Virus record (IMG/VR): IMGVR_UViG_3300046678_000067
Span: 32,001-96,000 of that record
Origin: a virus
Lineage: Duplodnaviria > Caudoviricetes
Direction: 5' to 3' (one strand)
Length of the DNA: 64,000 bases
The stretch's first letter is position 1. Each line of letters begins with the position of its first letter. The position numbers were made by a program, and so were the translations under genes. The notes under the pieces were generated by a model. That model had not been told where the DNA came from, made no database searches, and saw nothing but the letters and a program-made list of their open reading frames with translations. Positions 18,471 to 28,990 of the stretch are shown here, piece by piece.

Positions 18471-19982
18471 TTATTTTATTGCCTCTGTATGTAACTTCAT
18501 TGCGATCTTTTTAAACTCTACAGGGAATTCATCATTCTTGTAGATATCGTGTCTTTCGAAAGCATGCTTCAAGGTGAAGTTAGGTTTTCCATCATACAAG
18601 AAGTTATCAATTAGATCATACACATGAGCACTGGCCTTATCGTTGTGTAGACGTAGAATACGACCAACTGCCTGTAGGGTTCTAATGATAGCCTTCGTAG
18701 GATGAGCGAAGATGAGATTTCTTAGCTTCTTAATAGATAGACCAGTCGAAACGCATCCTGCCGTTCCTAGCACGATTACACCATCTTCCCGCTCAGCGAT
18801 AGCCTTAATAGCCGCTCGCTCATCGCGATCAACAGCGCCGGTAATAACATACACCGACTTCCCGTGATTCATCTTATCAAGAATAGCCTTAACATTCTCA
18901 ATATGCTCAAGTCGGTCGAACATCATCAAGGTATTACCCTTAACCGAAGAAGCCAGAGAAGCAAGAATCTGATTCCGATAGGCGTGGCCTATTAGGAACT
19001 CAATCTCCTTCTGATAATTACAACCAGCTACATACTCACATTCTTCTTGCTTGTAATCTAGCTGGAACATCTTAATATCAACTTCAGTCGCTCGACCGGC
19101 ATCAATCAGTTGCTTAGTTGTAACTACTCGCTTCACTGGTCCGAACAAGCTCATGACCAAGATGGGATGAATCTTCTCAGCCTTAAGCGTACCTGTCATA
19201 CCAATCCGTTGGTAGGCGTTGGTAGCGTTGTTCATAATGTTGGTGATCGACTTTCCGCTGGCTAGGTGGGTCTCATCGTTGATGATACGACCGAACTGCT
19301 TGAAGTATTCCTCATCTTCTTCATAGATAGATTGCCAAGTTGAGATATACACCATCTTATTGGAGTTCTTAGGACGACCCTCCATAATACAATGACACAT
19401 CTCATTAACCTTCCAACCATTGTGACTAGAATAGTCTTGGAAGTCGGAATACATCTGATCTACTAGCATTTGAGACGGCACTAGAATCAAAATCTTCTTT
19501 CCGTCATCATTACTGAGCATTTCATAGTACCGGGTCAACATGTAAGCAATTAGGGACTTACCTGCTGACGTTGCTGCTAGAATAACCATCCGATTAAACT
19601 TGACGCCTAGATACAACGACTCCATCTGATAATCGTATGGGTCGATCGGCATACCGCCAGTATGTAGGTCCAGACTTTTGACCCACTCGGTCAACTCTGG
19701 TCTAGTGACCTTAGAAATATCATTCTTGAAAGCTGTGTCTAGCTCGAATTTCCAACCGTTGGTTTTAGCCAGTTCGATGAGCATCTGAAGGCAACCATAT
19801 GGCAGTAGGTTTCCGCGCCGCTTAAACAGCCGCACTTGACCATTCCACTTGGTCCACTTATTCTTCACGAAGCCCGGTTCATGATATGAGAAGTGGTCTT
19901 CAATGTCCTTGCGGATACCATCATCCTCTGTGTAAATTCTAATGAACGAAGCATTTGCACGTTCGATGACTATATCCGCCAT
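18471..19982 (-). CDS. uvsW: UvsW DNA helicase
   Basis: PYDYQ, ATSAGKS, STWQS, DETH, GMTGT, LQAVGRILR. Confidence 0.95.
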   Translation of the reverse strand: MADIVIERANASFIRIYTEDDGIRKDIEDHFSYHEPGFVKNKWTKWNGQVRLFKRRGNLLPYGCLQMLIELAKTNGWKFELDTAFKNDISKVTRPELTEWVKSLDLHTGGMPIDPYDYQMESLYLGVKFNRMVILAATSAGKSLIAYMLTRYYEMLSNDDGKKILILVPSQMLVDQMYSDFQDYSSHNGWKVNEMCHCIMEGRPKNSNKMVYISTWQSIYEEDEEYFKQFGRIINDETHLASGKSITNIMNNATNAYQRIGMTGTLKAEKIHPILVMSLFGPVKRVVTTKQLIDAGRATEVDIKMFQLDYKQEECEYVAGCNYQKEIEFLIGHAYRNQILASLASSVKGNTLMMFDRLEHIENVKAILDKMNHGKSVYVITGAVDRDERAAIKAIAEREDGVIVLGTAGCVSTGLSIKKLRNLIFAHPTKAIIRTLQAVGRILRLHNDKASAHVYDLIDNFLYDGKPNFTLKHAFERHDIYKNDEFPVEFKKIAMKLHTEAIK

Positions 19983-20019: not shown

Positions 20020-20271
20020 TCATAGAGCCTTCGCAGCCTCCGCCTCTAGGCGTAGACGTTCGTATTCCAGCGCATCCCGTAGGGCAGCTGCGTAGATGGT
20101 TAGACGGCTCTTTGTCGGCATACCTTCTAGCATCGCCTCTTTGATCATGGGGATAGCTAGTTCAGGATGGTTATGAACTTTCCTAGACGTTTTCTGATCG
20201 AAGTAGACGAAGAAGAATTCAACCACGCTCTGTCTGAGGTAGTTCATTGCATTACGGGTTTCGCGTTTCAT
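20020..20271 (-). CDS. Hypothetical protein
   Basis: 83-aa ORF. Confidence 0.55.
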   Translation of the reverse strand: MKRETRNAMNYLRQSVVEFFFVYFDQKTSRKVHNHPELAIPMIKEAMLEGMPTKSRLTIYAAALRDALEYERLRLEAEAAKAL

Positions 20272-20311
20272 GATTTTTCCGAAGTTTCATATGTAAAATA
20301 ATTTAGCGGAC

Positions 20312-20340
20312 TAGACTTATATGCGTTTACCCCGTATAAT
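20312..20340 (+). promoter_or_regulatory. sigma70-type promoter with no downstream CDS
   Basis: TAGACT-N17-TATAAT. Confidence 0.7.
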
Positions 20341-20346
20341 CGACCG

Positions 20347-20735
20347 TCTAAATTAGTAGACTTGCGTGGTCGGTATGCAGACGGCAGCGCGCAGGTTCGT
20401 TTTACGGCTTACTGTGTTTCGAGCGAAGCCATACCCGCAATCTAGGACTCTTTTTGTCCGGTGTGACCCTGGGTGCTCGACTGTTATGATATTATGACAG
20501 CGCAAGAGGGTGTGACTACTAAGGGAAAATATCTTAACCCTTGGCTGTGGTTGGCTCCGTATATGAGTTAGCTATAGATAGTGGTTCTGTGCCTTACGGG
20601 GCATGGGCCATCTTATCTGTAATTTCACCGGGCTGAGGGTATAGAGGAATTTAATAGAATACTCATACATATTAGCTTGAATCCCTATTTGTAGTTGTAT
20701 CATAGAACCCCGAACTAACCATTCGGGGTTTCATA
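20347..20735 (+). ncRNA. Candidate ~390-nt structured non-coding RNA
   Basis: Promoter, many G-U-rich helices, terminal hairpin 20706-20730, no convincing ORF. Confidence 0.55.
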
Positions 20736-20744
20736 TTTTATAGC

Positions 20745-20773
20745 TTTACTTTTTACATAGTATGCGATATAAT
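20745..20773 (+). promoter_or_regulatory. sigma70-type early promoter
   Basis: TTTACT-N17-TATAAT. Confidence 0.75.
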
Positions 20774-20804
20774 ACGGTTTTCCCTAATAAACGAAGGATT
20801 TGAA

Positions 20805-21728
20805 ATGGATTTTGTACGTCGCTATAACGGTTTCGATATTCGCATCAAGCTTCAAGACAACGTTGCTTACTTCAATATTCTGGATGTAGCCTACGCAGCT
20901 GAATTCTCACGAGCAAGTTCGCTTCGCTATCATACAAAAGGCAAGCGCCGTGAAACGGTAATCGACGGTGCAATCTACCTGACCGTCAAGTCGATGAATA
21001 AGGTTGCCAAGGACGCGATCAAGACTCCTGGTATGAAGCTGTTTGCCGATTGGGCCAAAACGACGCAAGTTGATTTGATCTTCGAAGCGAACAAGCCTAA
21101 GTCAGTTGCTGCTCCAGGATTCCAACTTTGCGTACAAGACTATACTTCTCAAAAGGGATTCCAGAGCAAGACTTCTAAGAAGAAAGTCAAGCTTGGTGTT
21201 GTGACTACGCCTGATATTGTTAAGGCAGCCATCGTTACTGAGAAGTTGTATGGTATCAAGGAAGCGGCAATTCAACTGGGTATGACTGCTCAGCAACTAT
21301 CGAATTGGCTTGTCTCTGAAGGCTATGCCAGCCGTTACAAGGGTAACAACGCGCTGTACTGGAACGCTTGGTTTAAGACCCAAGGTTACGGCAAGCGCCC
21401 GGTCATTACTGATCATAAGGGTCAACGCGAATCTAACGTGGCCAAGTTCACTGCTAAGGGCCTGGAGTTCGTTAAGGCTCGACTGGATTCTCAACGTGAA
21501 TCGAATGTGCTTTCGTTCGCGTCTAAAGAATCTAACGAACGCGTTAAGTTGGAGTCTGAGATCGACGCTCTGATCAAGAATACTTTCAAGGGCGTCAAGA
21601 CTCAAAAGGAATACAGTGCATTGCTAGGTATCTTCGATGCGGAATACTTCATGAAAGAAGCAGTTCTGATCAAGGGTGTCAAGGCAATCCTGGCCGAAGT
21701 TAAACTGAAGGAAAAGGCGAATGTCTGA
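20805..21728 (+). CDS. Bro-N / antirepressor KilAC(ANT)-like DNA-binding protein
   Basis: YFNILDVAYA N-term; YGIKEAAIQLGMTAQQLSNWLVSEGY..KFTAKGLEFV. Confidence 0.7.
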   Translation: MDFVRRYNGFDIRIKLQDNVAYFNILDVAYAAEFSRASSLRYHTKGKRRETVIDGAIYLTVKSMNKVAKDAIKTPGMKLFADWAKTTQVDLIFEANKPKSVAAPGFQLCVQDYTSQKGFQSKTSKKKVKLGVVTTPDIVKAAIVTEKLYGIKEAAIQLGMTAQQLSNWLVSEGYASRYKGNNALYWNAWFKTQGYGKRPVITDHKGQRESNVAKFTAKGLEFVKARLDSQRESNVLSFASKESNERVKLESEIDALIKNTFKGVKTQKEYSALLGIFDAEYFMKEAVLIKGVKAILAEVKLKEKANV

Positions 21729-22164
21729 TTTCAAGGAAATGTCGTATGAAGAAATTGAAGGTGAGGTTGATAAGCTACTTACTATCAATCCTGATGACCT
21801 CGATGGAGAAGCCCTGCGAGGACCCAAAATTTTTACCTCGCTCAACCGTATCTATATCCAGAAGTCCCGACGACTCTCTGAATTGCTCACCGGTCTCCAC
21901 AAGCTTGAGCATAAAAAGAACAGATACTACGGCGGTAAAGACACAGCTGAGTCCTACCGCAAAGAGCCTCTGACCGAAGCGATTCTCAAGACTGATATTC
22001 CTAGCTATATGAATATCGACCCGCTGGTTGTTGAAATGCGGGAGCTTGTGAAGGAAGCCGAACGGATCGTCAAGTTTCTTGAAGACGCTAAGGGTCAGTT
22101 GCGCCAGCGCGGGTTCGACATCAAGAACGCGCTGGAATTCCGTAAAATGATGTTGGGTCTATGA
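21721..22164 (+). CDS. uvsY: Recombination mediator UvsY
   Basis: RYYGGK, ILKTDIPSYMNID, QRGFDIKNALEFRK. Confidence 0.88.
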   Translation: MSDFKEMSYEEIEGEVDKLLTINPDDLDGEALRGPKIFTSLNRIYIQKSRRLSELLTGLHKLEHKKNRYYGGKDTAESYRKEPLTEAILKTDIPSYMNIDPLVVEMRELVKEAERIVKFLEDAKGQLRQRGFDIKNALEFRKMMLGL

Positions 22165-22362: not shown

Positions 22363-22905
22363 ATGAAGTATAGCGTCATTCCGGGTTCCGGTGATGCAGA
22401 GTTGATCGTAGTGCGTGGACTTCCCGGTTCTGGAAAGTCCTCATTCGCCAAGACTCTGACGGATACCCTTGTTATTGAATCAGACATGTGGTGGTATCGT
22501 AATCCTCAACTAGAATATCAATTCGATTTCGACCTTCTGAGCCGCGCTCATCGCTGGGCTTTGCAGTCGGCAGAAGCGTTCTTGGCTGACGGTCGATGCG
22601 TTGCAGTAGCAAATACAAACCTGACTTTCCGTGAAGCTAAAGGCTATGTTGCTTTTGCCAAGGCTATCGGTTGCCCTATTTCCGTCTATACGATGGATAA
22701 GGGAGTCAACTATGGAAGCATCCACGGCGTACCGAAAGAAGTGATGGTACGGATGCACAATAAGATGGAATCACACGAAGTATTCATGGAGAAAGCAATT
22801 GCTTATCAACCCGACGGAACTGAAGGAATTTGTCGAGACAAACCCCAAGCTGGTCTCTCGGAAGGAGTCCAAGCGGCATCCGGGTCTGTTCGTACTGAAG
22901 TATAA
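22363..22905 (+). CDS. P-loop kinase (AAA_33 / polynucleotide kinase-like)
   Basis: RGLPGSGKS, VANTN, SIHGVP. Confidence 0.8.
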   Translation: MKYSVIPGSGDAELIVVRGLPGSGKSSFAKTLTDTLVIESDMWWYRNPQLEYQFDFDLLSRAHRWALQSAEAFLADGRCVAVANTNLTFREAKGYVAFAKAIGCPISVYTMDKGVNYGSIHGVPKEVMVRMHNKMESHEVFMEKAIAYQPDGTEGICRDKPQAGLSEGVQAASGSVRTEV

Positions 22906-23722
22906 GAACAACGTATTCTATGATAACCTTTGGCACCTCAGCCCGTTTCTGAATAAGTGCCGAGGATTGGTTGTAGATAAAGACTACAACGTTATCATCA
23001 AACCGTTTACAAAGGTATTCAATCATCATGAGAATGGGACGGACATTGATCGGGACGAGCTTTGCACTGTTGTCCGCAAGGTCAATGGCTTCATGGGCGT
23101 CGCAACTTATGCTCCGAGTTTTTCTGATGACATCATTTACTCTACTACTGGCAGTCTTGACAGTGACTATGTCGATTTGGTTAAGAAGCATGTAGCTCAG
23201 TATGAGGATCGGATTAAGTCTTGCGGTCCATGCACCTTCATCTTTGAGATTTGCGACGAAACCGATCCGCATATCATCAAGGAAGAATTCGGAGCTTGGT
23301 TGATCGGCGGTTCAGTATATCACAACGATCAATCTTATCCGGTGTTGGAGAGCGTACTAGATCATTTGGCATATCACTGGGAATGTAAGCGCCCTGAGCA
23401 TCACCCTTGTCTGAGATTCTCAGAAGTGGTAAAGATGGCCAAGGAATGTAAACACGAAGGTTATATGGTCTATGGTAGGTTTTCAGGCACGTCTCTGAAG
23501 ATCAAATCGCCATATTACCTGGTAACTAAATTCCTTGCTCGTGCAGGAGAAAAGAAATTGCTTGAAGGTGTCCTCTCGGAGAACCGTTATCAGGCAATGC
23601 AGAAATTTGATGAAGAGTTCTATCCGTTGCTAGGGTTTCTGTTTGCCCACAAGGAAGAATTCTTGACCCTAGATGAACAAGCCCGAATCAATATCATTCG
23701 AGGCTATTTGGAGGATAAATGA
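22799..23722 (+). CDS. RNA ligase (Rnl1-like)
   Basis: CRGLVV, PFTKVFN, KVNG (motif I), FIFEI, EGYMV, LKIKSPYY. Confidence 0.85.
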   Translation: MLINPTELKEFVETNPKLVSRKESKRHPGLFVLKYKNNVFYDNLWHLSPFLNKCRGLVVDKDYNVIIKPFTKVFNHHENGTDIDRDELCTVVRKVNGFMGVATYAPSFSDDIIYSTTGSLDSDYVDLVKKHVAQYEDRIKSCGPCTFIFEICDETDPHIIKEEFGAWLIGGSVYHNDQSYPVLESVLDHLAYHWECKRPEHHPCLRFSEVVKMAKECKHEGYMVYGRFSGTSLKIKSPYYLVTKFLARAGEKKLLEGVLSENRYQAMQKFDEEFYPLLGFLFAHKEEFLTLDEQARINIIRGYLEDK

Positions 23723-26031: not shown

Positions 26032-26103
26032 TGTTCTGAGGTGTATTGGAGTGCACACCGCCCTTTAAAGGCGGAAGATTTGGTTCGATTCCGAACAGAA
26101 CAA
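26032..26103 (+). tRNA. tRNA with TTA anticodon (ochre-suppressor-like or Lys-derived), no encoded CCA
   Basis: TGTTCTG/CAGAACA acceptor, CCGCC-CTTTAAA-GGCGG anticodon arm, TTCGATT T-loop. Confidence 0.75.
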
Positions 26104-26119
26104 CTTAACAATAAGAGGT

Positions 26120-28915: not shown

Positions 28916-28990
28916 CCCGCGTTCGTTTATTGGTAGGATGGGCGATATGTTCATCGTCAGAATGAGGTTCGATTCCTTGACGCGGGGCCA
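28916..28990 (+). tRNA. tRNA-sized RNA with non-canonical anticodon loop (undetermined)
   Basis: CCCGCGT/ACGCGGG-G-CCA; GGCGAT-ATGTTC-ATCGTC arm lacks a 7-nt loop. Confidence 0.7.

Follow-up and report, generated by a model that had tools for sequence, protein, structure and literature searches.

The locus considered here lies in a stretch of 64,000 nucleotides, hereafter the window, taken from a 116.8-kb IMG/VR virus record that is 74% complete and derives from an uncultured T4-like phage. Within the window, a gene-free gap (20272-20804) separates genes on the minus strand, to the left, from genes on the plus strand, to the right. On the left are a gene for a UvsW-type helicase of 503 aa (18471-19982, minus strand), recognized by tblastn through 44–51% identity to the UvsW-annotated helicases of Delftia phage PhiW-14, Vibrio phage YC, and Ralstonia phage RSP15, and an 83-aa ORF (20020-20271, minus strand), which is divergent from the RNA gene described below and has no match in Pfam and PHROG searches. 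On the right are a gene for a 307-aa protein with a KilAC/ANT domain (20805-21728, plus strand; PF03374, 5.8e-6) and uvsY (21721-22164, plus strand; PF11056, 4.8e-14). The flanking genes are thus those named, uvsW and uvsY, in a preliminary description of this DNA made from its letters alone.

Inside the gap, a consensus scan finds a sigma-70-type promoter, TAGACT-17-TATAAT (20312-20340, plus strand; 10 of 12 matches), whose −10 box is kept in orthologues. It precedes a structured core free of ORFs (20359-20641), which is followed by an AT-rich spacer that sequence comparison finds non-conserved (20642-20704) and by an intrinsic terminator made of a 10-bp stem and a T-rich tail (20705-20731, plus strand). 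The downstream operon then has a separate promoter, TTTACT-17-TATAAT (20745-20773, plus strand). Promoter, core, and terminator form one predicted transcription unit, with a conserved core of ~285 nt and a predicted primary transcript of ~385 nt. The scan therefore recovers the TAGACT-N17-TATAAT promoter, the terminal hairpin (20706-20730), and the promoter of the next gene (20745) of the preliminary description. Its late-like CTAAATT at 20348, and with it a late promoter at this point, is without support, as the related word TCTAARTA occurs in the window at chance frequency.

Orthologues were sought in viral contigs, first through UvsW and later by DNA patterns. This gave three loci (L003, L004, and L121) in which the RNA has the same place, beside uvsW and the 83-aa ORF, whose conservation next to the RNA is seen in L003 and L121. 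The AT-rich spacer is missing in L004, and in L003 and L121 a small ORF (88–105 aa) with a ribosome-binding site stands there instead, after the RNA (L003:4511-4828 (−) and the L121 equivalent).

In addition to the RNA in the window (copy A), the phage's own record carries a paralogue outside the window, copy B (G000:C1:102,050-102,350 (−), the same as L002:1370-1670 (−)), with a TTTACT-17-TATAAT promoter and a bidirectional terminator of its own. The neighbors of copy B are a gene for an SGNH-esterase-like virion protein and an RNase H gene, the latter followed by a late sigma factor gene; L007 is an orthologue of this copy. A complete relative, G006 (170,684 bp, including L121), has three copies (L148, L150, and L151), located at 64.5 kb (by uvsW), at 15.5 kb (by the genes for RNase H and the late sigma factor), and at 153.7 kb. 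In copies B and C the spacer is missing and the terminator directly follows the core. R1, a model built from the first 159 positions, finds exactly two copies on the phage's own record; with that record 74% complete, the third may be missing from it. Neither R1 nor the Rfam family RF02932, discussed below, finds a copy in the five nearest cultured relatives (RSP15, Cygsa01, PhiW-14, YC, and Bakedbeans), and a weak model match in Pseudomonas phage Cygsa01 was not counted because the family motifs are missing from it. A blastn search of 50,697 phage records with copy A and two family representatives gave no match, and pattern scans of viral and metagenome contigs with the invariant blocks of this subfamily returned only the same four contigs.

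These relatives bear on the possibility that the region holds a small protein gene, or that its structure arose by chance, which is so improbable that it can practically be set aside. ORFs of 27–50 aa do occur in the window, but none of the five short ORFs of this stretch stays open in the orthologues, where stops and frameshifts break every one and rule out a conserved small ORF. The earlier statement that the region has no ORF is accurate in this sense. Moreover, the substitutions track base pairs rather than codons. Regarding the fold, the plus strand has a minimum free energy of −133.8 kcal/mol, beating dinucleotide-shuffled controls (z = −3.3) as the preliminary description had expected, compared with z = −1.7 for the minus strand; the plus strand is also taken as the folded one because of the many G-U pairs. 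Across six sequences, 12 helices are paired in 93.8% of the cells, against 75.4 ± 1.3% in column shuffles and 34–42% in controls with slid partners. Compensatory pairs, changed on both sides, number 49 out of 76, with a shuffle mean of 22.7 and no shuffle as high (0 of 500). When two extra paralogues from the complete relative are added to give eight sequences, 88.8% of the cells are paired, with 51 compensatory pairs, and the first ten helices are 91–100% paired, except P2 at 73%.

Four of the 12 helices cross others: two are loop–loop pseudoknots, a third is an H-type pseudoknot, and the fourth is a kissing loop. The RNA opens with the P1 hairpin (20359-20368 with 20388-20397), which aligns to P1 of RF02932 and has 8 of its 10 pairs compensatory; its loop carries GUCGG and ACGGCAG, two family motifs that vary little or not at all among the eight sequences. 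The P2 hairpin (20405-20410 with 20426-20431; 4 of 6 pairs compensatory) matches P2 of the same family. Their loops meet in PK1, where GCAG (20384-20387) of the P1 loop pairs with CUGU (20412-20415) of the P2 loop; it is 100% paired, includes two compensatory pairs, and appears as GCAG/CUGU, GUGG/CCAC, or GUAG/CUAU. The P2 loop is also engaged in PK2, through UCGAGC (20419-20424) and GCUCGA (20475-20480), a partner segment 55 nt downstream of the loop; this helix, which also occurs in variant forms, is 100% paired as well, with 3 compensatory pairs in eight sequences. Inside PK2 are P3 (20433-20437 with 20470-20474; 97–100% paired) and the P3a hairpin (20445-20448 with 20456-20459; 100% paired). 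P4, formed by ACCC (20466-20469) and GGGU (20508-20511), crosses P3 as the H-type pseudoknot and encloses P5; it is 100% paired, with 3 compensatory pairs in eight sequences and the variants ACCC/GGGU, AUCC/GGAU, ACUC/GAGU, and GUCC/GGAC. The P5 hairpin (20481-20487 with 20494-20500) is 93% paired, with 5 compensatory pairs, and its loop GAUA (20488-20491) kisses the loop UAUC (20530-20533) of the P6 hairpin (20519-20527 with 20534-20544). All four pairs of this contact (20488-20544 with its hairpin arm) and 8 of the 9 pairs of P6 are compensatory.

The 3′ part of the RNA contains GGCUCC in a hairpin loop (20553-20558), followed by a short core, AUGAG (20563-20567); GGCUCCG is invariant in 8 of 8 sequences. 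Then comes a long 3′ hairpin (20573-20592 with 20601-20621; 83–87% paired, with compensatory pairs present). The conserved RNA ends with the stretch 20624-20641, made up of a UUCACC element (20624-20629), the counterpart of the (Y)UCACC(A) of the wider family, and of the core CUGAG (20633-20637) after it. Of the eight aligned sequences, 7 have the CACC (20626-20629) of this element, and in the remaining one, L004, the row is shifted there. A further helix, P7 (20514-20518 with 20582-20586; 100% paired, 2 compensatory), is an alternative to part of the 3′ hairpin. The two pairings are mutually exclusive, each has some covariation support, and together they point faintly to switching between two states, for which a simple scaffold model has no explanation.

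Several of the helices first proposed for this region, namely ACCCT/AGGGT (P4), CTGTTAT/ATGACAG (P5), AAGGG/CCCTT (P6), and TGGTTCTGTGCC/GGGCATGGGCCA, are kept with compensatory changes. The CTGTGGTT/AGCTATAG helix forms in the window and has counterparts in the relatives in shifted registers, while only the GGUG/CACC part of CCGGTG/CACCGG stands, in some sequences, and the remainder falls away. Unconserved are TTGCG/CGCAA and GGTATG/CATACC, in whose place P1, P2, and the two pseudoknots are found. PK2 and P5 are flanked by two exact copies of an 8-nt sequence, GGTGTGAC, in direct orientation (20460-20467 and 20509-20516); this repeat is probably incidental because the orthologues do not have it identically.

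The place of this RNA ahead of an operon raises the question of whether it is a cis-regulatory leader or processing element for the ANT-like gene and the uvsY operon, acting on read-through, stability, or translation. Such a role would agree with the two exclusive pairings of the 3′ domain, with the L004 locus, where the core abuts the next gene and the terminator is absent, with the small ORF and its ribosome-binding site directly after the RNA in L003 and L121, and with the RF02932-type lineages that place the RNA between cistrons, 6–13 nt past a Toprim gene. It is nevertheless quite improbable: in the window the next gene is set off from the RNA by a strong terminator and has a separate promoter, copies B and C are stand-alone and either convergent with or divergent from their neighbors, the downstream genes differ in nearly every lineage, and Rfam returned no riboswitch or leader match.

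What Rfam does return, with the whole window searched at the gathering threshold and this region at E ≤ 10, is only tRNAs and a weak match to RF02932 (Betaproteobacteria-1, listed as a candidate sRNA); ARAGORN found no tmRNA. The comparison with Rfam, to which the preliminary description had pointed, thus yields an end-to-end alignment of the family to the first ~116 nt (20359-20474), but at 22.6 bits, below the curated gathering cut-off of 49.4 bits. L004 scores 22.2 bits, and copy B and L003 are not reported. Common to RF02932 and the RNA in the window are the two hairpins, P1 with its GUCGG...ACGGCAG loop and P2 with its CUGUG loop, the contact between these loops (PK1 in the window), apparently a GC(G)AA-N-CUAG junction, and the character of a phage-borne, stand-alone gene. 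From the junction on, the comparison is mixed: RF02932 has a GGUGGCGAAG junction, a 6-bp P3 hairpin with a 16-nt loop, and a 3′ GGGU, whereas the window has CCCGCAAUCUAGG and a rebuilt region of P3, P3a, and P4, in which the GGGU is used by P4 ~35 nt beyond its RF02932 position. A P3 register like that of Rfam is possible in the window RNA, with one-sided changes only. The window RNA also differs in adding two kissing hairpins and a 3′ domain of ~100 nt, and in coming from a T4-like phage.

A search with the motif pattern returned more than 119 viral contigs, ~68 of them with the P1 stem, in ~29 sequence clusters. The RF02932 cut-off is passed by 4 of 17 tested loci (85–104 bits), and R1 aligns full-length to a dozen other family members with 20–49 bits. 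These family members extend ~150–200 nt past the Rfam model and contain GGCUCC in the loop of one hairpin, another hairpin that is long, and (Y)UCACC(A); GGCUCC with (Y)UCACC 50–100 nt downstream occurs in 25 of 33 lineage representatives and in the window. One cluster is identical to a gap left without annotation in 45 cultured phages of Acinetobacter (genus Obolenskvirus). In AbP2 (L145, MF346584: 21,801-22,131), this long-form member occupies such a gap amid structural genes, and it has at least 90% identity in 44 of the 45 phages and at least 99% in 28; these carriers are a ready experimental system.

Since the window RNA combines an RF02932-type 5′ domain with long-form 3′ elements, below the catalogue threshold, we regard it as a diverged long form, and the alignments are read as those of a diverged and enlarged relative of the RF02932 family. 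With the long form of Obolenskvirus phages (AbP2, Abp9, BUCT628, and others) and of the viral contigs it has in common the 5′ domain, the GGCUCC loop, the 3′ hairpin, the (Y)UCACC element, an overall size of ~300 nt, and, often, a promoter or terminator of its own. The already known part is RF02932, which covers the first third; the long form is uncatalogued, and the copy in the window is a variant of it. In the literature, Betaproteobacteria-1 was found only as a catalogue entry, and no description of the RNA in the window was found. Rfam models only about one-third of the RNA. Falling below its cut-off, the copy in the window shows how far the family can diverge, and which parts, GUCGG, ACGGCAG, GCAA-N-CUA, GGCUCC, and CACC, stay fixed despite the divergence.

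The other lineages have a feature that sets them apart from the subfamily of the window. In 21 of 25 of their representatives, the 7–12 nt after GGCUCC(R) recur exactly after UCACC(A), at a spacing of 51–57 or 80–94 nt and with a sequence that differs between lineages (examples of carriers, among L011-L128, are L021:350-460 and L040:1975-2085 (−)). This private repeat is a clean handle on sequence identity and on action of the RNA on its own DNA. In the subfamily of the window, instead, no word longer than 5 nt is shared in the window (P = 0.14), and none longer than 4 nt in L003 or L121 (P = 0.14–0.5 across the subfamily). What is shared there is a purine-rich core, UGAG, CGAG, or UGGG, which matches within each RNA and is not significant alone, and no other positional direct repeat was found in this subfamily. 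In 20 of 20 lineages, the 60 nt past the second repeat have a higher A+T content than their locus.

Several explanations of the repeat were tried and rejected. Pairing of the second repeat (X2) with the 5′ leader to close the molecule was ruled out, no consistent internal complement of the repeat was found elsewhere in the RNA, and two complete genomes have no further exact copies of it. A rolling reverse-transcription ORF unit of the DRT2/Neo type is incompatible with spacings of 51–94 nt that are not multiples of three, and the ~30 neighbor proteins scanned include no reverse transcriptase. On reading, a Shine-Dalgarno or CsrA site fits only about one-fourth of the lineages. Pairing of UGGU in P1 with ACCA was discarded, as its U and G lie inside the P1 stem of Rfam and the fourth base varies uncompensated in the present RNAs.

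The same elements could be processing sites. Cleavage at the two C-N-C-C-R sites, whether self-cleavage or the work of RNase P or a different endonuclease, would then set free a small RNA consisting of the 3′ hairpin; in the short form, this hairpin would be comparable to a tRNA acceptor minihelix ending in ACCA. On reading, the short-form hairpin of 11–12 bp does run directly into a single-stranded (C)ACCA, and the same sequence after both sites would provide identical cleavage contexts. We consider this very unlikely: the element of the subfamily is CACCG, CACCA, CACCU, or CACCC rather than a CCA end and stands 8 nt from the hairpin, and the logic of P4 CI and P1 C4, in which the excised antisense RNA is complementary to the flanking repeats, was rejected by the segments between the copies (Fisher p = 0.42).

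A role in replication calls for a longer discussion, as the preliminary description had mentioned an R-loop primer RNA and the transcription-primed T4 origin at uvsY. According to this explanation, which is possible but unlikely, the RNA, folding as it is transcribed, would stay hybridized to its own template and open the duplex or prime leading-strand synthesis, in the manner of ColE1 RNA II or T4 oriF and oriG; UvsW and RNase H, whose genes adjoin copies A and B, would process the R-loops, and the copies would amount to two or three origins. The genes around the RNA are suggestive: UvsW and UvsY adjoin copy A, RNase H adjoins copy B in this phage and in G006, and other lineages have Toprim primase-like genes, a primase-helicase with ERF, or a replication-initiation protein. 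Other members of the family, however, adjoin repressors, HNH endonucleases, and methyltransferases, those of the Acinetobacter phages sit among structural genes, and the five nearest cultured phages have the same uvsW and uvsY genes without the RNA.

The position of copy A can be read in two ways. Both in its own record (at 52.0 kb) and in G006 (at 65.0 kb), no more than about 0.5 kb separates it from the global minimum of cumulative GC skew, as would be fitting for an origin. The skew minima need no origin, though, because switches of gene orientation at the same points explain them, and copies B and C are away from the minima. The minimum (51.5-52 kb in the phage's own record, 65.0 kb in G006) coincides with the main divergent switch of gene orientation.

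T4 oriF and oriG consist of a MotA-dependent middle promoter and an adjacent AT-rich unwinding element. The locus in the window resembles oriF(uvsY) and oriG(34) in its site near uvsY and uvsW and in having, within the origin region, a promoter from which transcription would begin. It departs from them in having a conserved RNA fold, absent there, together with a −35/−10 promoter and a terminator. On reading, this promoter (TAGACT, 17-bp spacing) has no TGCTT MotA box near −30; it is followed by a core of 52–56% G+C with no unwinding element adjoining, and the AT-rich tract at 20642-20704 comes ~290 nt downstream and is unconserved in orthologues, copies B and C having terminators directly past the core. 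A T4-type origin with an R-loop primer, as first proposed, is accordingly doubtful.

The comparison with ColE1 brings in the private repeat. RNA II reportedly has its rG run far upstream, as Masukata and Tomizawa are said to have described in 1990. Like RNA II, the RNA is promoter-driven, structured, several hundred nt long, and ORF-free, and a segment of the RNA that, in the wider family, recurs further downstream could, by analogy, pair with the template strand there; differently from RNA II, it has pseudoknots rather than simple stem-loops, its repeat is degenerate in the window, no antisense RNA I is seen, and there is no homology of sequence or structure. The persistent hybrid of ColE1 needs a stretch of rG in RNA II paired with a stretch of dC in the template (PMC4412123). 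Identity without complementarity, as found in 21 of the 25 other lineages, would likewise be required by a mechanism of template pairing. The family can be imagined from this as a portable origin-activating RNA, whose loop, through its private sequence, would seize the template past the 3′ hairpin and set up a replication R-loop; we regard this as improbable, and the repeat of 4–5 nt in the subfamily of the window speaks against it. The AT-rich 60 nt past the second repeat would suit such a mechanism, but AT-rich DNA after genes is a common intergenic trait, and the count of 20 out of 20 was obtained by comparison with the own locus only. One lineage also has, directly after the RNA (L126:395-470 (−)), about eight short direct repeats, three of TACTGTAGT and then five of TACCTAGT; the array looks iteron-like and appears to resemble part of the 3′ hairpin of its own RNA. 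A last point against an origin is that dense contacts of tertiary type are typical for RNAs that act as folded molecules. If the RNA does act on its own DNA, it would provide a defined sequence signature by which phage replication origins, usually difficult to locate, could be recognized.

Given these points against a role as an origin, we rank above it a gene for a compact, heavily pseudoknotted noncoding RNA, which would act as a free molecule through its fold. We give this reading, based on comparison of sequences, a probability of roughly one-half. That a large noncoding RNA is encoded here, as the preliminary description had suggested, is supported by the conservation, the compensatory changes, the promoter and terminator of its own, the paralogue, and the lack of a conserved ORF. 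The RNA would be made early in infection from its early-type sigma-70 promoter and, remaining free, would work through its three-dimensional fold by binding a component kept in widely differing hosts and phages, whether as a decoy, a cofactor, or part of a small ribonucleoprotein. This component most plausibly belongs to nucleic-acid metabolism because the neighbors are usually helicase, primase, RNase H, and recombination genes. The RNA would then behave as an optional cargo gene, and not as a fixed part of the uvsW–uvsY module; family members do occur in many unrelated contexts, as a self-contained cargo gene would. On the other side, the replication-gene neighbors, the site of copy A, and the exact repeat would fit a cis-acting role on the DNA at least as well.

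Whatever the RNA does is almost certainly something important: a large lytic phage keeps, as two or three long-diverged copies, an RNA of ~300 nt with four pseudoknotted contacts, and related RNAs occur in very different phages, including therapeutic Acinetobacter phages. Among known RNAs, GOLLD and ROOL are similarly ornate, ORF-free, rich in pseudoknots, carried by phages or prophages, and sporadic in distribution. The RNA in the window is much smaller, has no Rfam match to either, and is known here from its sequence, which does not indicate the formation of multimers.

The surroundings of the RNA gene include other elements related to RNA. At 22363-23722 of the window, 1.6 kb past the RNA gene, a gene for a P-loop kinase (AAA_33) overlaps the start of a 307-aa ORF that we presume, on reading of its sequence, to resemble an RNA ligase; the kinase and the putative ligase would be comparable to an RNA repair pair of the T4 style. 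The window also has a cluster of 23 tRNA genes, within which ARAGORN predicts a tRNA with the anticodon UUA, of the ochre-suppressor type (26032-26104), and a tRNA-like gene whose anticodon loop is irregular (28916-28990).
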